The notes under the pieces were generated by a model. That model saw only the letters and a list, made by a program, of their open reading frames with translations, had not been told where the DNA came from and did not search any database. Source: Escherichia coli (lineage in GTDB: Bacteria; Pseudomonadota; Gammaproteobacteria; Enterobacterales; Enterobacteriaceae). Taken from it: a stretch of DNA of 64,000 nucleotides. The stretch is taken from the NCBI RefSeq assembly GCF_050320075.1, contig NZ_CP190018.1; one strand, written 5' to 3'. Below are positions 2,012 to 39,326 of this stretch, piece after piece. Within the stretch, counting starts at the first letter, position 1, and each line of letters begins with the position of its first letter. Position numbers and translations under genes: made by a program.

Positions 2012-2418
2012 TATGGAAACGAAAAATCACCCTGGAAGCACTGAATGCCATGGGTGAAGGAAACATGGTGGGGTTGCTGGATATTCGCTTTGAACATATT
2101 GGTGATGACACCCTTGAAGCGACAATGCCAGTAGACTCGCGGACAAAGCAGCCTTTCGGGTTGCTGCATGGAGGGGCATCCGTGGTACTGGCCGAAAGTA
2201 TCGGTTCCGTTGCCGGTTATTTATGTACCGAAGGTGAGCAAAAGGTGGTTGGTCTGGAAATCAATGCTAACCACGTCCGCTCGGCACGAGAAGGGCGGGT
2301 GCGCGGCGTATGCAAACCGTTGCATCTCGGTTCGCGTCACCAGGTCTGGCAGATTGAAATCTTCGATGAGAAAGGGCGTTTGTGCTGTTCGGCACGATTG
2401 ACGACCGCCATTTTGTGA
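2008..2418 (+). CDS. menI: 1,4-dihydroxy-2-naphthoyl-CoA thioesterase (hotdog fold), 136 aa
   Basis: 136-aa ORF recognised as MenI/YdiI; start overlaps ydiJ stop. Confidence 0.9.
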   Translation: MIWKRKITLEALNAMGEGNMVGLLDIRFEHIGDDTLEATMPVDSRTKQPFGLLHGGASVVLAESIGSVAGYLCTEGEQKVVGLEINANHVRSAREGRVRGVCKPLHLGSRHQVWQIEIFDEKGRLCCSARLTTAIL

Positions 2419-2517
2419 CGTTGTCACCAGAAAAGTGTGACGCATATTGCTTTTGGTCATTATCTGCACAGTAAACGGTGGTATACTGTGCAGGTCTTGT
2501 CTAAAAGCGAGGATGCT

Positions 2518-2706
2518 ATGTCTACTCAACTTGATCCCACCCAGCTGGCCATTGAATTTTTACGCCGTGACCAAAGCAATCTTTCACCTGCCCAATATCT
2601 CAAACGTCTGAAACAACTAGAACTTGAATTTGCTGACCTGCTTACTCTCTCTTCTGCTGAATTAAAAGAAGAAATCTACTTTGCCTGGCGTCTGGGCGTG
2701 CATTGA
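2518..2706 (+). CDS. ydiH: small protein YdiH, 62 aa
   Basis: Internal ATG at 2518 of track ORF 2437..2706 gives the 62-aa protein MSTQLDPTQLAIEF...; position between menI and sufA. Confidence 0.7.
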   Translation: MSTQLDPTQLAIEFLRRDQSNLSPAQYLKRLKQLELEFADLLTLSSAELKEEIYFAWRLGVH

Positions 2707-2899
2707 TCCTGACTTGATGCCGCAATTTCGCCAAATCGACCTTGATTAACCTCCGTCCAGGTTCGATGGCCTTCTTAATACTGCTTATCTACCCGCCTGA
2801 TATTGTTCAAAAATAATACTAATCGCAGTTTGTGTTAAAACGGCGGGTTAGCTTTATGAGATTATTCTTATCGCCCCTTCAAGAGCTAAGCCACTGAGA

Positions 2900-2972
2900 G
2901 TGCCGGAGATAAGCGCCGGATGGGGTAGAAACCCTTAAGCCTGTGTCGCACAGACTTAAGGGTTTTCTTATT
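2900..2972 (+). ncRNA. candidate small RNA ending at an intrinsic terminator in the ydiH-sufA spacer; possibly RydB; 5' end not determined
   Basis: Orphan hairpin plus U-tract about 220 bp downstream of ydiH with no ORF; an sRNA is known in this spacer in K-12 but I cannot recall its sequence. Confidence 0.3.
2930..2972 (+). terminator. Rho-independent terminator: 10-bp perfect stem AACCCTTAAG/CTTAAGGGTT followed by TTTTCTTATTT
   Basis: Inverted repeat 2930-2939 / 2955-2964 then T-rich tract, read directly. Confidence 0.6.
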
Positions 2973-3189
2973 TCTGAACGCTGCACTTTTTTACCTATCT
3001 CTTAAATAGTCATTTTCAATACAACTTTTTCTTTTTCATCACAGCCTTAATGCTCCTTAGATAATAATCATTATCTAACAATGAGATACCTAATTCTTAG
3101 CGTGCCTGTTAACCCACACATCAGGGTCTATGCTTATTAAAAGCAGGAAAAAAGCATGTTTTACGGTAAAGCCCCTGCGTTTGCTGGGT

Positions 3190-3210
3190 TGAACTGATAA
3201 TCATTATCAC
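3190..3210 (+). promoter_or_regulatory. Fur box in the sufA promoter region
   Basis: GATAATCATTATC at 3196-3208 matches the 3' 13 nt of Fur consensus GATAATGATAATCATTATC; about 45 bp upstream of sufA ATG. Confidence 0.7.
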
Positions 3211-3254
3211 TAACATGCTGTTATACGCTGAAAGCGATGAAGTGAGGTAAATCG

Positions 3255-3623
3255 ATGGACATGCATTCAGGAACCTTTAATCCACAGGATTTCGCCTGGC
3301 AGGGCTTAACGCTGACACCCGCAGCCGCTGTCCACATCCGCGAGCTGGTGGCAAAGCAGCCGGGTATGGTCGGCGTGCGCTTAGGCGTGAAGCAAACGGG
3401 CTGCGCGGGCTTTGGCTATGTGCTCGACAGTGTTAGCGAGCCGGACAAAGACGATCTGCTGTTTGAACACGACGGCGCGAAGCTGTTTGTCCCGCTGCAA
3501 GCGATGCCGTTTATTGATGGCACGGAAGTCGATTTTGTTCGTGAAGGACTTAATCAGATATTCAAATTTCACAACCCTAAAGCCCAGAATGAATGTGGCT
3601 GTGGCGAAAGCTTTGGGGTATAG
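3255..3623 (+). CDS. sufA: Fe-S cluster A-type carrier SufA, 122 aa
   Basis: 122-aa ORF with C-terminal CGCGESF motif; first gene of suf cluster. Confidence 0.95.
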
Positions 3624-9934: not shown

Positions 9935-9966
9935 CAAAAAAATGGCGCACAATGTGCGCCATTTTT
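9935..9966. terminator. bidirectional intrinsic terminator shared by ldtE (+) and lpp (-)
   Basis: AAAAAAATGGCGCACAATGTGCGCCATTTTT: palindromic stem flanked by A-tract and T-tract. Confidence 0.8.
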
Positions 9967-27842: not shown

Positions 27843-28775
27843 ATGTGGTCAGAATATTCACTCGAAGTTGTTGATGCGGTAGCGCGTAATGGTAGTTTTA
27901 GCGCTGCGGCACAGGAGTTGCATCGCGTTCCTTCTGCGGTCAGCTATACCGTGCGTCAGCTGGAAGAGTGGCTGGCGGTGCCGCTGTTTGAACGACGTCA
28001 CCGTGATGTGGAACTGACCGCTGCCGGGGCGTGGTTTCTCAAAGAAGGGCGCTCTGTTGTCAAAAAAATGCAGATCACCCGGCAGCAATGTCAGCAGATA
28101 GCGAACGGCTGGCGCGGTCAGTTAGCTATCGCAGTGGATAATATTGTCAGGCCGGAACGTACACGGCAGATGATCGTTGATTTTTATCGCCATTTTGATG
28201 ATGTCGAACTCCTTGTCTTTCAGGAAGTGTTCAACGGTGTCTGGGATGCGCTTTCCGACGGGCGCGTGGAACTGGCGATTGGCGCAACACGCGCGATTCC
28301 GGTAGGCGGTCGTTATGCCTTCCGCGATATGGGGATGCTAAGCTGGAGTTGCGTTGTTGCCAGTCACCACCCGCTGGCGTTGATGGATGGCCCGTTCAGC
28401 GATGATACGTTGCGCAACTGGCCGTCGTTGGTGCGCGAAGACACCTCGCGAACGCTACCTAAACGTATTACCTGGTTGCTGGATAACCAAAAAAGACTTG
28501 TCGTGCCTGACTGGGAATCATCGGCAACCTGTATCTCTGCAGGATTATGCATAGGGATGGTGCCAACACATTTCGCCAAACCGTGGCTTAATGAGGGGAA
28601 GTGGGTGGCACTAGAACTGGAAAACCCCTTCCCGGATTCGGCATGTTGTCTGACATGGCAGCAAAATGATATGTCGCCTGCGTTAACCTGGTTGCTTGAG
28701 TATCTCGGCGATAGTGAGACGCTGAATAAGGAGTGGCTGCGGGAGCCGGAAGAGACTCCCGCAACGGGTGATTAA
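27843..28775 (+). CDS. punR: LysR-family transcriptional regulator PunR (YdhB), 310 aa
   Basis: N-terminal [36 protein letters not shown]; 3' end overlaps purR stop by 4 nt. Confidence 0.88.
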
Positions 28776-29797
28776 CGACGATAGTCGCGGAACGGGCCGT
28801 CAGCCACGGAGCGGCGTTCAATCAACCGCGGATGCACTTCAATGGATTGCGGTTCTTCGCGTTTATTGACGATACGATCCAACAGCATATTGAACGCAGT
28901 TTCGCCCAGCGAATCTTTTGGCTGATGGATCGTGGTCAGCGCCGGCGTAAAATAGCGGGCGTTGCGCACGTTATCATACCCGATCAGCGAAACATCCTGC
29001 GGGACGCGCAGACCCATTTCATCAGCAGCACAAAGTGCGCCCATTGCCATGATATCGCCACCACAGAAGACGGCAGTAGGGCGATGCGGCTGCGACAGGA
29101 TTTGCTGCATGGCGCGATAACCGGATTCAGGTTCAAAGTCACCCTGCACAATCCAGCTTTCCGGCACTTTGATCATCGCTTCTTCCATCGCCTTCATAAA
29201 ACCGGCAAGGCGGCCTGCGCCGGTGTTACGTTCCAGTGGGCCAGGGATAACGCCGATTTCGCGGTGACCGCGTTCAATCAGATAACGCCCGGCCATGTAG
29301 CCGCCTTCGAACGCGTTATCAATGACCGCATCGGTGAAGTCAGCTTTTGCTTCACCCCAGTCCATCACCACCATCGGGATATGGCGATACTCTTCCAGCA
29401 TCGCCAGCAACGGCTCTGGGTACTCAGAACACATCACCAGCAGACCATCGACGCGTTTTTGCGCCATCATCGACAGATAAGCCCGCTGTTTCTCAAGATT
29501 GTTCCACGCATTGCCCAGAATCAGGGTGTAACCTTTCTGGAAGCAATTTTTTTCAACCGCTTCAATGATCTCGGCAAAATAGGCCGCTTCGCTGCTGGTC
29601 GCCAGCAAACCGATAGACTTGGTGTGGTTAACCTTCAGACTACGCGCCACCGCGCTAGGGGAGTAGTGTAATTCTTTGATCGCTGCCCACACGGCGTTGC
29701 GCGTTTCTTCAGCGACGAAACGTGTTTTGTTGATCACGTGTGACACAGTTGTAGTGGAAACGTTTGCTCGTTTCGCTACATCTTTTATTGTTGCCAT
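28772..29797 (-). CDS. purR: purine repressor PurR (LacI family), 341 aa
   Basis: [55 protein letters not shown]... Confidence 0.97.
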
Positions 29798-29841
29798 TCC
29801 ATTTCACTCCAGACCCTAACTTCAGCTCCTGCAAAATCGCA

Positions 29842-29857
29842 AGGTAAACGTTTGCCT
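29842..29857 (-). promoter_or_regulatory. PurR operator (PUR box) in the purR leader
   Basis: Minus strand reads AGGCAAACGTTTACCT, matching ANGCAAACGTTTNCNT; 45-60 bp upstream of purR ATG. Confidence 0.6.
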
Positions 29858-30066
29858 TTACACACCTTACGCACAACAAAAGTGTTGCGGTACGCCGGAA
29901 AAACGACACGGAGCGTCAGGAAGGGGTCAATGGCCAGTACGCAAATAGTGTAAGCGTGGAATTTTGGCCGATCTTGACGAAAAGGGGAAGTGGTAAAAAC
30001 ACTTATCATTATAAATGACGGGAGATTTTTTCATCACAGTGTGTAAAAATGCGTAATATCACTTTT

Positions 30067-30075
30067 TGTGTGGTA
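30067..30075. repeat. IS1 target-site duplication, left copy TGTGTGGTA
   Basis: Identical 9-mer directly flanks both ends of the element. Confidence 0.9.
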
Positions 30076-30098
30076 GGTGATGCTGCCAACTTACTGAT
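30076..30098. repeat. IS1 left terminal inverted repeat
   Basis: GGTGATGCTGCCAACTTACTGAT. Confidence 0.9.
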
Positions 30099-30130
30099 TT
30101 AGTGTATGATGGTGTTTTTGAGGTGCTCCA

Positions 30131-30406
30131 GTGGCTTCTGTTTCTATCAGCTGTCCCTCCTGTTCAGCTACTGACGGGGTGGTGCGTAACGGCAAAAGCA
30201 CCGCCGGACATCAGCGCTATCTCTGCTCTCACTGCCGTAAAACATGGCAACTGCAGTTCACTTACACCGCTTCTCAACCCGGTACGCACCAGAAAATCAT
30301 TGATATGGCCATGAATGGCGTTGGATGCCGGGCAACTGCCCGCATTATGGGCGTTGGCCTCAACACGATTTTCCGCCATTTAAAAAACTCAGGCCGCAGT
30401 CGGTAA
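30131..30406 (+). CDS. insA: IS1 InsA (DNA-binding inhibitor; N-terminal part of InsAB' transposase), 91 aa
   Basis: [43 protein letters not shown]... zinc-finger and HTH. Confidence 0.97.
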
Positions 30407-30828
30407 CCTCGCGCATACAGCCGGGCAGTGACGTCATCGTCTGCGCGGAAATGGACGAACAGTGGGGATACGTCGGGGCTAAATCGCGCCAGCGCTGGCT
30501 GTTTTACGCGTATGACAGGCTCCGGAAGACGGTTGTTGCGCACGTATTCGGTGAACGCACTATGGCGACGCTGGGGCGTCTTATGAGCCTGCTGTCACCC
30601 TTTGACGTGGTGATATGGATGACGGATGGCTGGCCGCTGTATGAATCCCGCCTGAAGGGAAAGCTGCACGTAATCAGCAAGCGATATACGCAGCGAATTG
30701 AGCGGCATAACCTGAATCTGAGGCAGCACCTGGCACGGCTGGGACGGAAGTCGCTGTCGTTCTCAAAATCGGTGGAGCTGCATGACAAAGTCATCGGGCA
30801 TTATCTGAACATAAAACACTATCAATAA
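30325..30828 (+). CDS. insB: IS1 InsB reading frame, 167 aa; expressed as InsAB' by -1 frameshift
   Basis: [16 protein letters not shown]...; overlaps insA in the -1 frame. Confidence 0.95.
30382..30388 (+). other. IS1 programmed -1 ribosomal frameshift slippery site AAAAAAC
   Basis: A6C heptamer in the insA/insB overlap, read directly. Confidence 0.85.
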
Positions 30829-30843
30829 GTTGGAGTCATTACC
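30821..30843. repeat. IS1 right terminal inverted repeat
   Basis: Reverse complement GGTAATGACTCCAACTTATTGAT is an imperfect match to the left repeat. Confidence 0.9.
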
Positions 30844-30852
30844 TGTGTGGTA
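30844..30852. repeat. IS1 target-site duplication, right copy TGTGTGGTA
   Basis: Identical to 30067-30075. Confidence 0.9.
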
Positions 30853-30872
30853 ATAAAAAAGGAGAAAACTTG

Positions 30873-30962
30873 ATGAGCACCGACCTTAAATTTTCACTGG
30901 TAACAACGATTATCGTCCTCGGTTTGATCGTGGCCGTGGGTTTGACTGCCGCGCTGCACTGA
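30873..30962 (+). CDS. ynhF: small hydrophobic protein YnhF, 29 aa
   Basis: ATG at 30873 preceded by GGAG; single-TM peptide MSTDLKFSLVTTIIVLGLIVAVGLTAALH; not in the ORF track because it is shorter than the track cut-off. Confidence 0.7.
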   Translation: MSTDLKFSLVTTIIVLGLIVAVGLTAALH

Positions 30963-34711: not shown

Positions 34712-37700
34712 CTATCCCCAATCCAGCCCTTGTGGCGAACTTGAAAATCCCGCCTCACGCAGCAGCGTAAACATCGGCGTTTGCCGGACCGGTAGATCAT
34801 TCACTTCTGTTAGCGTAAAGCGCAGCCGTGGTTCGCGACGCAGTGCGGTGGTCAGCGCCTGGAAAATCTCTGGGGCGAGTAATTCATCTTTTTCCTGCCA
34901 GACCAGCATTTTTTTGCCGCCTTGCGCCAGATAGAGTAACAATTTGCCGCCAGAAACGACCACCAGCGCACCCGCCCGACGCGTTGGAACCAGCGTTGCC
35001 GGATGTGCAGGCCAGGGCAGAAGATTTCCCCACACATTAGCCGGATCGTTGGCGGAGAGCGCCACTGGTGTATAGTGGCGCGTTTGCGTGGCTTGTGTCG
35101 CCAGATCGCGCAATCGGTCAATAGTCAGACGTTCAGCGAATTGCGCACCCCCCAGACCTTCTACAAAACGACCTCGCATAATTCGCCCGGAGTCTTCCAT
35201 ACTTCGACAAAGCGTTTGCATCGATGGAAACCCGCCAGGGATATTTTCGGCTATCACCGCCTGACGACTGATGATGCCGTAGCGGTCGAGCATATTTTCC
35301 GCCAGCGCCAGCATCCTTTCGGTATCGTTTAGTGGCTCCACCTGCAATAACGACCAGCGTCCAGCAAGATTTGGTGTGTTGTAAGATACCCGTGGCGAGA
35401 CGGGTTGTGCATAGACAGGACGCCCACGACGAGCCCGGTGACTGCGGCGAGTCGAGGTGCGTGCGTTGGAACTGCTGCGGGTGAGGGCGCGTAACGGTGC
35501 CCAAATGTCGCTGGTGATGACGCCTTGCCAGACCAGCGCCCATAACGCCTCTTGCATGGCTGAGGGATCAACCGATTCGCCGATTTTATCGCGTATCCGT
35601 TGGCTGATTTGTTGTGCAAACCAGGCTCCTCCGTCAGCCAGAACAGCGATTATCGCTTGCTGCAGCGCCGAACGATTCGCCTGATCTGCTTCGGCGGGAG
35701 TGAACGATTCTGCGGCATATTCCTGTAGATGCAGTGCCACCAGACCGTCATCTTCACCCAGCTTTTTTTGCCCCGACCAGATAACCGCACCGGTTGCCAG
35801 TAATTCATCGAGCATTTCTGGCGAATAGTCGCGTACGCGGGCAGGCAGGATCTGGCTTTCCCAGAGTGAGGCGGGTAAACCAACGCCAGCAAGCTGTTCG
35901 ATCACCCGCATCACGCCATCCACGCCCTCATAAACGCCTGGCGATGTTGAGGCAAAGAGTGCCGGGCTACCATCGGTGGCGGGTAATACGCCCTGACGTT
36001 CCAGCAGCAATCGCGCATAGGTCGTGGCCGCAACGGGACGTGTCGCTTCTCTGGCGGCTTGCAGCGAGCGCAAACGCAGACGACGAAATACTTCATCGCT
36101 CACCCAGATGTCTTGTTGCAGATTCATCACCAGCCCCTGTTCGCGCAGTTGCTGAAGTTGCTCTTCGACAATGGCAATACCGAGACTAAACTCATGAGCC
36201 AGTTGTTCAGACGTGACCAGAGCATGAGCCCGGAGATAGCGCAGAAAGAGGTCGCGAAGCGGGTAACTGACTCGGTGCAAATAAATCTCTGGCAGTGACT
36301 CTGGTAGTCGTACGCCGAGAGCATCGCGCAGCCTGGCGGCATCATCCATACAGGCAAGACGCTCCTGCCCGCTAATCATGGTCGGGAAGATTCGTTTTAC
36401 TGCAAGAAGATTTTCCAGATACGACGCAATCTCTTCACTGCTGCCTGTATGTCGTTGCGCCAGGTCTTCAACGGTCATTGGCCCCAGTTCGCGCAGCAGG
36501 TCGAACAATCCTTCTTCACCTTTCGCTCTTCTGCCAGGAGCCAGTCGTTGCAACTCTTCTTCCACCTGGCGAATGACCTGCGGGTCGAGTAATTCCCCCG
36601 GATCGACCTGTCCGAGTAGATTGCGCAGTAACTCGCTGTCCAGCGACAGTACGGATGCCCGGCGCTCTGCCAGCGGGGCGTCGCTCTGGTACATAAATTC
36701 CGCGACATAGCCGAACAATAAACTGGCGGCGAAAGGCGAAGGCGTAGTGGTCGTTACATCGGATATTTGAATTTCGCCACCGTTCAGGCGACGCATCAAA
36801 CGTTCCAGCGCGGGAAGATCATAAACATCTTGCAGACATTCGCGTAGTGTTTCGAGAATGACCGGAAAATCCGGATATCCCTGAGCGATTTCCAGCAACT
36901 GACTGGCGCGCAGCCGTTGTTGCCAGAGCGGGGTGCGATGGCCCGGCGTGCGGCCCGGCATTAATAATGCCCGCGCGGAGCATTCGCGAAAACGGGCGGC
37001 GAAAAGTGCCGAGCTGCCTACCGCCTCGCGGACAATTTGCAGCAACTTTTCTGGTTCAAACAAAAAAATCGCGGCATCAGGCAATTTACCATCGGTGTCA
37101 GGAATGCGCGCAACAATGCCGTCATCACTGGCAACCACAGACGCGTCAGCGCCCCATAGTGCATGTATTCGCCCGGCAATCGCCAGCGCCCAGGGTTCAT
37201 GCACCCGTCTTCCATAGGGAGAGTGCAAAATAATACGCCAGTCACCAATTTCATCACGGCACCGTTCGAGGACCAGATGACGACTACCTGGAACGATGCC
37301 CGTCGCGTTGCGCTGCTCGTCAATCAACCCCTGAATATTGGCGATCGTATTTTCTTCTGCCAACCACGGGGGAATAGTCCCGGAAAAGAACGCGCCATCC
37401 GCCAGTAAATGGAGAAAATCGCCGATCATCTCGCCTAATTCTGCCGGACGTCCGTTACCTTCACCACGCCAGAAGGGAAGGCGGGCAGAACGACCTGGAG
37501 CAGGAGTCACAATCACCTGATCGCGGGTGATTTGCTGGATCCGCCATGAGGTAGCGCCGAGAGTGATAATGTCGTTCACCCGCGACTCATATACCATCTC
37601 CTCATCCAGTTCACCCACCCGCCGCGAACCGGCCTGTTCTTCACCTTCGGGTAATAACACGCTATACATGCCACGATCCGGAATGGTGCCGCCGCTGGTA

Positions 37701-39326
37701 ACCGCCAACAATTGAGCGCCAGGTCGGGCGGTCAATATCCCGGTCTCCCGGTTCCAGACCAGTTTGGGGCGAAAAGCAGAAAAATCGCCAGAGGGATAGC
37801 GCCCGGAAAGCATATCCAGCGTGGCGTCAAAAACACGTCTTGGCAGATCTTTCCACGGTGCGGCACGGCGTACGCGGGAGTACCATTCGTCTACCTGTAA
37901 TGCATCCATCGCCGCGGCGGCAACGGTTTGCTGCGCAAGGACGTCGAGTGGATTATGCGGCGGTGTCAGGTTTTCCAGCCTGCCTGCGAACATACACTCT
38001 ACAATGACTGCGGAATCGACTAAGTCACGCCTGGTTCGGGGGAAAAAAAGCCCTTTGGAGATACCACCTACCTGGTGTCCGGCACGTCCAATGCGTTGTA
38101 ACCCACTGGCAACAGAAAGCGGCGTTGCCACCTGAATCACCAGATCCACCGCGCCCATATCAATCCCCAGTTCGAGACTGGAGGTTGCGACCACGCAGCG
38201 TAATTCACCCGATTTCAGCGCCTGTTCGGTGATTGCTCGTTGTTCTTTAGAGACGGAGCCGTGGTGTGAGCGGGCAATAAAAATGTCGCTATTTTGTACA
38301 CGGTTAGAGGTTGCGCCGGAGGTCGACTCGAAATGGACCGCATCAACGGCGATAGACGGGGAACGCTGTAAGCGTGCGGCGTAAAGCTCATTCAATCGTG
38401 CCGTCAGTTTTTCCGCCAGCCCGCGTGAATTAGTAAAGACAATGGTCGAGCGATGGCGCAAAACTTCATCAAGGATACCCGTTTCAATATATGGCCAGAT
38501 GGAGCCTTCCCGGCCGGCATGGCTGTCTTCGCCGGTGCCGCTGGCGACCGATGAGACATCATCCATATTGGCGACCGGTACGACAATCCGTATCTGCGGA
38601 TGGCGCATTGCGGGCGGGTTGACTACCGTAACCGGGCGATCGCCGCCAAGAAATGCTGCCACATCGCTGGCTGAACGCACAGTGGCAGAAAGGCCAATTC
38701 GCTGTGCTGAGGTGTGGAGCTGCGCATCGAGCCGCTCCAGACTTAACGCCAGATGCGCACCACGTTTACTGCCTGCTACCGCGTGGACTTCATCAATAAT
38801 TACCGTTTCGACGCCGCGTAGCGTTTCGCGCGCGGGAGGTCAGCATCAGATAGAGTGATTCGGGTGTGGTGATCAGAATATCCGGCGGATTACGGGTGAG
38901 TTTGCTGCGTTCCTGTGCAGGCGTATCGCCAGTACGGATCCCCACGCGAAGATTGACTTCCGTTTCGCCGCGCCGCCGCCGTTCATCGGCAATACCCTGT
39001 AACGGGATCTGCAAGTTGCGCTGAACGTCGGTGCCCAGAGCTTTGATCGGTGAAATATAGAGGATGCGTGAGGTTTTACGCTTATGCGCCTCGCGGGTAT
39101 CTTCGCCGCCTTCGCGGAAGAGCTGATCGAGGGCGTAGAGAAATGCTGCCAGCGTTTTCCCGGAGCCAGTCGGTGCAATCACCAGCGCATGTTCGCCTCG
39201 CGCCGCCACATGCCAGGTTTGCGACTGGACAGCGGTCGGCTGTTTAAAGGCGCGAAGAAACCAGTCGCGGGTCGCCGGTGAAAACACGTCCGGCAGGGGC
39301 GATGAAGGGTTTAGATTATCTGCCAT
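34712..39326 (-). pseudogene. lhr: lhr (large ATP-dependent helicase) interrupted by a frameshift: N-terminal 177-codon ORF 38793..39326, remainder open in another frame from about 38839 to 34712
   Basis: Walker A APTGSGKT in the upstream ORF; DEVH motif II and the rest of the helicase in a different frame; junction in CGCGCGCG at 38827-38834. Confidence 0.75.

Follow-up and report, generated by a model that had tools for sequence, protein, structure and literature searches.

An IS1 insertion in the cydH leader of an Escherichia coli strain beside an unchanged purR operator

The palindrome in the purR leader of the present Escherichia coli strain is the long-known purR operator O1, unchanged in sequence, and there is nothing new in the operator itself. 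We are highly confident that this palindrome, purRo1, serves a normal autoregulation of purR, and that the IS1 element found upstream of it is a private insertion in the leader of the divergent gene cydH (ynhF) that most likely leaves purR essentially unchanged.

Genomic context

In the window, i.e. the whole 64-kb stretch of DNA that was analysed, the gene order is ydiJ-suf-lpp-pykF ... punC-punR-purR-(IS1)-cydH-ydhP-sodB ... rsx. The genes punR (+ strand) and purR (- strand) are convergent, and their 3' ends overlap by 4 nt (28772-28775). Near purR lies punC (ydhC), reported as the strongest adenine-induced gene (193-fold), and a purine-related cluster adjoins purR.

Compared with NZ_CP123240.1 (strain YZLc1-3, from chicken faeces, China), the window differs by two small indels, a 2-bp CG-repeat unit at 38835 in lhr and one A in an A7/A8 run at 9935, both outside the purR-IS1-cydH region. 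The lhr gene (34712-39326, - strand) is split in the window into ORFs of 177 and 1322 aa, while it is intact in the annotation of NZ_CP123240.1; the split may reflect a true frameshift or a difference between assembly versions.

The purR operators and control region

The features on the purR side of the insertion are as follows.

28772-29797, - strand: purR coding sequence, intact, 341 aa, annotated PurR (WP_000190982.1)
29754-29769, - strand: purR operator O2, GAGCAAACGTTTCCAC, inside the purR coding sequence (ORF nt +29 to +44; transcript +187 to +202)
29798-29955, - strand: purR 5'UTR, 158 nt, from the published transcription start site (TSS) at 29955 to the ATG
29842-29857, - strand: purR operator O1, +99 to +114 of the purR transcript, 44 nt short of the ATG
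29956-29997, - strand: purR core promoter region as predicted from the TSS, untouched by IS1
29966-29961 and 29989-29984, - strand: putative -10-like CAAAAT and weak -35-like TTCCCC of purR

The purR product is a canonical PurR, which matches the purine repressor chains of the PDB (e.g. 1bdi, 1pnr) over their full length with 768 bits. Its leader and promoter were delimited with the start sites published for K-12 (Kim 2012, Table S1), namely 1,735,710 (+) for purR, with a 158-nt 5'UTR, and 1,735,607 (-) for ynhF, with a 38-nt 5'UTR and 94 reads, about three times those of purR. Exact matches of the 51-nt flanking strings placed these at 29955 (-) for purR and 30058 (+) for cydH, the whole TSS geometry thus coming from one genome-wide K-12 dataset (Kim 2012); a Cappable-seq dataset had no entry for the TSS coordinates of purR or cydH. 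The two divergent start sites are 103 bp apart, and both are on the purR side of IS1. A consensus sigma-70 scan called neither of the two native promoters, which in the case of purR is consistent with a weak promoter. Over the 376 bp that comprise the 5' coding end of purR, both operators, the leader and the promoter, the sequence agrees with K-12 XL1-Blue and O157:H7 at 100% identity, and the identity is 95% or higher in each of the 5,424 matching E. coli genomes.

O1 reads AGGCAAACGTTTACCT on the minus and AGGTAAACGTTTGCCT on the plus strand. It is a PUR box, a 16-bp imperfect palindrome with a central CG as in the PurR consensus (ACGCAAACGTTTTCNT / ACGNAAACGTTTGCNT), and AGGTAAACGTTTGCCT shows one mismatch to the consensus of Cho 2011. 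The preliminary description had proposed a PUR box in the purR leader that matches the PurR operator strongly and serves purR autoregulation, and each of these points held: sequence and position were exact (29842-29857, 44 nt before the ATG at 29797), and the box was the top-scoring match in the 64-kb window, its 21.2 bits exceeding the 20.0-bit median of the known sites. The latter values were obtained with a weight matrix made from the PurR motifs that Cho et al. 2011 tabulate for their ChIP-chip peaks, 27 in number once purR's own site had been excluded. The matrix was used in place of a mismatch search with the single consensus, which was uninformative because matches with three mismatches are expected about once per 64 kb by chance. 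A score equal to or above that of O1 was reached somewhere in 7 of 200 Markov-simulated 64-kb windows, and the position and conservation of O1 are the stronger evidence when set against its matrix score.

As for autoregulation, the identical 16-mer AGGTAAACGTTTGCCT is the purR motif in Table 1 of Cho 2011 (PMC3159470), under a PurR ChIP-chip peak at 1,735,528-1,736,095 (adenine-only, log2 enrichment 1.99), and RegulonDB includes the purR sites among those that were footprinted. Corepressor-dependent PurR binding has been documented for the identical K-12 sequence. Rolfes & Zalkin 1990 name two control sites in their title, and O1 is the upstream one of these.

The second site, O2, lies 88 bp from O1 (centre to centre). 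By sequence alone its matrix score, 11.1 bits, is at background level, and its conservation could not be used, since it lies in conserved coding sequence that overlaps the search pattern for the PurR N-terminus (see below); O2 is given as a purR site in PMC5110547. The two-operator layout is thus present, with O2 in the coding sequence and both boxes downstream of the TSS, the arrangement named in the title of Rolfes & Zalkin 1990. When set beside purRo1 and purRo2 of K-12 (Rolfes & Zalkin 1990; Meng, Kilstrup & Nygaard 1990), boxes, leader and promoter are identical here, at unchanged distances from the ATG and from the mapped TSS, so the operator unit is without differences. The sole difference is the IS1 that is located 121 bp upstream of the TSS in the present strain. 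Autoregulation through the two operators is reportedly two- to threefold and is said to require both of them in vivo. The affinity of O1 is reportedly about sixfold above that of O2, and binding is said to be non-cooperative.

Proposed autoregulation of purR

In the mechanism that we propose, a PurR dimer loaded with hypoxanthine or guanine would bind O1 in the leader and the weaker O2 in the coding sequence. Since both boxes are well downstream of the promoter, repression would most likely be exerted by a roadblock to the elongating RNA polymerase and not by promoter occlusion, and its outcome would be a mild negative feedback on PurR levels. A roadblock is most plausible by analogy with purB, where PurR acts from downstream of the promoter in this manner (He & Zalkin 1992, as cited in PMC6524683). 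As the purB operator is presented in that citation, it resembles purR in having its PUR box well downstream of the promoter, a geometry for which few-fold repression at the elongation stage would be expected; it differs in that purB has one box, in the coding sequence, whereas purR has a box in its leader and another in its coding sequence. The promoter, leader, O1, O2 and purR itself are all canonical in the present strain and, to judge from their sequence, should work normally.

Conservation of O1 across genera

A degenerate pattern for the PurR N-terminus was run against a species genome collection and found 120 loci, 112 of which were non-redundant and had enough flanking sequence; Citrobacter, Enterobacter, Klebsiella, Salmonella, Kluyvera, Cedecea, Kosakonia and other genera were covered. 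A strong PUR box was present 57-60 nt before the purR ATG in 108 of the 112 non-redundant loci (49-50 nt in two of them), and its core, CAAACGTTT, was nearly invariant across the Enterobacteriaceae loci. When the 330 nt upstream of purR were aligned with MAFFT, O1 was the best-conserved 16-nt window, with an identity to the E. coli base of 0.91 against 0.60-0.66 in the immediate flanks. The second best-conserved upstream block was the predicted -10 and TSS region of purR, and its conservation across genera lends independent support to a purR start at 29955.

The variation that does occur in O1 follows the logic of a protein-binding site. Among the 17 distinct variants, the changed pair positions comprised 23 that were broken, one that was kept and none that was compensatory. 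Changes at the outer positions break the palindromic pairing, the inner core varies only at A7/T10, as it does in validated PurR sites, and several variants bring a half-site closer to the PurR consensus. Because its variation breaks the palindromic pairing, O1 behaves as a protein operator and not as an RNA stem.

Four loci with the PurR N-terminal pattern have no O1 box. The O1 position is occupied by CGTAAAGTGCTTGCGC in Acerihabitans arboris and in two Enterobacterales MAGs; the remaining locus comes from an assembly labelled Faecalicatena and may represent either another gene of the LacI family or a contaminating contig.

Anatomy and distribution of the IS1 insertion

On the far side of the divergent promoters, the following features were found.

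30042-30058, + strand: cydH (ynhF) promoter with the -10 region TGTAAAAAT, extended -10-like, and the TSS at 30058; hexamers predicted
30058-30075, + strand: first 18 nt of the cydH leader, cut off by IS1
30067-30075: target-site duplication TGTGTGGTA, 9 bp, left copy
30076-30843, + strand: IS1, 768 bp, apparently intact, in the same direction as cydH
30844-30852: target-site duplication TGTGTGGTA, 9 bp, right copy
30853-30962, + strand: other 20 nt of the cydH leader, including the Shine-Dalgarno sequence AAGGAG, and the cydH ORF
30873-30962, + strand: cydH/ynhF ORF, 29 aa, intact, now 777 bp farther from its promoter

The element, the only copy of IS1 in the 64-kb window, has all the characteristics of its family, i.e. 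the length, the inverted repeats, insA and insB' with an A6C -1 frameshift, and a target duplication. Its terminal inverted repeats are 23 bp long and match at 18 of the 23 positions, insA encodes 91 aa, the A6C frameshift motif TTAAAAAACTC is at 30380, and insAB' is on the + strand; PGAP annotates an 'IS1-like element IS1B family transposase, programmed frameshift'. The flanking 9-bp direct repeat, TGTGTGGTA, is perfect, and the empty site in IS-free genomes and in K-12 has a single copy of it. The target is 67% AT. The first base of the element is 219 nt from the end of O1; counted from the TSS of purR it stands at -121, and counted from that of cydH at +19.

Of the 5,426 complete E. coli genomes, a single one has the configuration with IS1. 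A 120-bp probe for the empty site was uninterrupted in 5,423 of the 5,424 matching genomes, with the present strain as the exception. Judging by this distribution, the insertion is evidently a recent, strain-private transposition.

Other insertion sequences were seen in the same small region. The urinary isolate KE40 (NZ_CP141100.1) carries an IS5 between cydH and ydhP (locus 2284-3264), and NZ_CP178859.1 (labelled E. coli HB101) carries an IS30 at the 5' end of purR (locus 1287-2438), where the match to the window ends at 29778. This IS30 sits between O1 and O2, so that the promoter, O1, the ribosome-binding site and the initial codons are parted from the rest of purR; even so, PGAP annotates a slightly shortened purR there. 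The stretch around purR and cydH has therefore been struck independently by IS1, IS5 and IS30 in different strains.

Consequences of IS1 for purR

The preliminary description had placed IS1 about 220 bp from O1 and upstream of the purR promoter region, which is geometrically right (219 nt as measured, with the first base at -121 from the TSS). From there it went on to suggest that insertion-driven changes in purR expression would shift the whole purine regulon, and this we found to be unsupported, as IS1 lies beyond the divergent cydH promoter and leaves a 376-bp control region that is identical to K-12.

An effect of this kind could arise if IS1 altered purR transcription through an outward hybrid promoter or a changed upstream DNA context, thereby resetting the whole purine regulon. 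The inverted repeats of IS1 do contain an outward -35 element that can make a hybrid promoter when a good -10 follows in the flank at 16-18 bp (PMC8764528; Prentki 1986, as cited in PMC9330008), and at the purR-facing junction TTGGCA (5/6) of the left inverted repeat is followed after 17 nt by AAAAGT (3/6, with A2 and T6 retained). This candidate, the only route to an effect on purR that we found, is mediocre, however: it has 8 of 12 consensus matches and stays under the scan threshold, and the IS1 end from which it would act is 121 bp upstream of the purR TSS, past the divergent cydH promoter. At the cydH-facing junction the -35 is TTGGAG and the best total 7/12, the -10 candidates across both junctions matching at 3-4 of 6 positions. 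Given candidate hybrid promoters of 8/12 and 7/12, an outcome nearer to 'decreased' or 'unchanged' than to activation would be expected. In a study of ST131 (PMC8764528), IS1 raised, lowered or left unchanged the transcription of its neighbours depending on the -10, and having no effect was common. Moreover, the native purR promoter, leader, O1 and O2 are identical to those of K-12, and an additional purR transcript that started from IS1 would still have to cross O1 and O2, so that negative autoregulation would buffer it.

The insertion can also be set beside known cases of IS1 upstream of genes, in which the effects range from strong activation to lowered or unaltered expression (Prentki 1986; acrEF; afaA, osmB and ugd in ST131). 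The present element shares with them the same canonical 768-bp IS1 with a 9-bp duplication, an AT-rich, promoter-proximal target and outward -35-like hexamers in both inverted repeats. Unlike them, it lies inside a 5'UTR and not upstream of a promoter, and there is no good -10 on either side. We therefore regard a meaningful effect of IS1 on purR, and with it a reset of the purine regulon, as unlikely; IS1 most likely leaves purR autoregulation essentially unchanged, as its unaltered control region would suggest.

Consequences of IS1 for cydH

CydH (YnhF), an accessory subunit of cytochrome bd-I, is made when oxygen is low (PMC6853902; PMC8951039). Its promoter contains a block, GCATTTTTAC, that is conserved across genera, and its native 38-nt leader consists of ATCACTTTTTGTGTGGTA followed by ATAAAAAAGGAGAAAACTTG, between which IS1 has entered at +19. 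In this arrangement insA lies 73 nt past the cydH TSS and is read in the direction of cydH. Transcripts from 30058 would thus enter IS1 in the insA direction and cross 768 bp before they reached cydH. IS1 insertions are classically polar, via Rho-dependent termination. For both of these reasons, the expression of cydH is most likely lowered or deregulated by the insertion. The gene likeliest to be affected by IS1 is therefore most likely cydH, a point that was absent from the preliminary description.

A broader proposal is that IS1 rewires both genes, giving rise to a second purR transcript from TTGGCA/AAAAGT while the cydH promoter comes to drive insA/insAB' instead of cydH. If so, PurR would go up and the repression of the purine regulon would be tighter, CydH would be uncoupled from oxygen control, and expression of the IS1 transposase would become oxygen-responsive. 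We consider this combination unlikely as well. An insertion that acts mainly on cydH continues to be the preferred reading.

The chicken strain VTB96815v has another alteration at the cydH promoter, where 10 bp are tandemly duplicated (ACAGTGTGTA) directly over the -10 region (locus ~170-190, corresponding to ~30036-30045 of the window); it is unrelated to the target duplication of IS1.

Occupancy of the palindrome by GalR

The palindrome has also been linked to another regulator, and it might mainly be a GalR operator, or a LacI-family site shared between galactose and purine control, in place of a PurR site. A GalR ChIP-chip peak is on record at ynhF/purR, with a binding score of 9.5, validation by ChIP-qPCR and the proposed sites AGGCAAACGTTTACC and GTGGAAACGTTTGCT (PMC5110547), and according to the same study the GalR boxes overlap with the PurR operators that were described by Rolfes & Zalkin 1990 and by Meng et al. 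1990. GalR thus sits on both purR boxes in vivo, yet without detectable regulation (PMC5110547), and this binding is compatible with that of PurR, so that GalR is at most an additional occupant. O1 scores above the median of validated PurR sites, and PurR occupies it in vivo in response to adenine (PMC3159470). The binding of GalR without detectable regulation suggests LacI-family cross-occupancy of O1 and O2, in which GalR may be a second occupant but would not represent what the sites mainly do; GalR control in place of PurR control strikes us as improbable.

The palindrome, the purR leader and the RNA family STnc550

The same palindrome could in principle act at the level of RNA, as a hairpin either in STnc550 (RF02081, + strand) or in the purR 5'UTR (- strand). 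In favour of the former, the region matches RF02081, an enterobacterial sRNA candidate, far above the gathering score: positions 29798-30177 (+ strand) reach 261 bits against a gathering threshold of 48, and in the consensus structure of the family AGGUAAACGUUUGCCU is paired into a stem of 6 bp that closes a loop of 4 nt. In the present strain the match is split by IS1, which displaces the model positions beyond ~279 and leaves a second fragment at 30836-30879 (+). The IS-free locus (1699-2089) scores 396 bits and aligns to the model over its full length, which begins at the base adjoining the purR ATG and ends shortly after the cydH stop codon.

It is this extent that speaks against a structured RNA. 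The 388-nt model is the whole purR-cydH spacer plus the cydH ORF and takes in the promoters of both genes as well as the antisense strand of the purR leader. On the + strand, the one TSS that has been mapped, 30058, is ~200 nt downstream of O1, so O1 is outside the RNA that starts there. Nor is the pairing of O1 maintained across genera (23 positions broken, one kept, none compensatory). On the - strand, the purR leader folds no better than shuffled sequences (z = -0.52), and its minimum-energy structure lacks the palindrome hairpin. The reading of palindrome and leader as RNA structure was rejected on the fold score (z = -0.52) and on the pairing, and we give it very little credence. STnc550 looks like the mRNA of the small protein CydH together with non-transcribed DNA, and not like a structured sRNA; a text search of the literature for STnc550 found no paper.

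Besides, a moderately conserved part of the purR leader (29904-29918, - strand; +38 to +52) contains a weak hairpin, TGACGCTCCGTGTCG, that resembles a terminator and has TTTTT after it. Three terminator-like hairpins were seen in the scan against 1.7 expected, which is about the chance rate.

Lastly, a functionless chance match to the PurR consensus, for which one could cite the background of about one three-mismatch match per 64 kb and the 7 of 200 simulated windows with a score as high, has a practically negligible probability and is effectively refuted by the location of O1 in purR's own leader, its identity to the ChIP-bound site and its standing, at a fixed distance from the ATG, as the best-conserved block upstream of purR across genera.

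Conclusions

In summary, the purR operator of this strain is the known one, and O1 and O2 constitute a textbook case of a repressor that acts on its own gene via sites downstream of the promoter. As a minor point for the curation of RNA families, STnc550 appears to model a DNA operator palindrome, two promoters and a small-protein ORF as one sRNA. In a divergent promoter region such as this one, an insertion sequence that is annotated as 'upstream of purR' in fact interrupts the leader of the opposite gene, which corrects the logic of such annotations. Any change that the insertion brings about in the present strain would thus be likelier to concern the expression of cydH than purine regulation.
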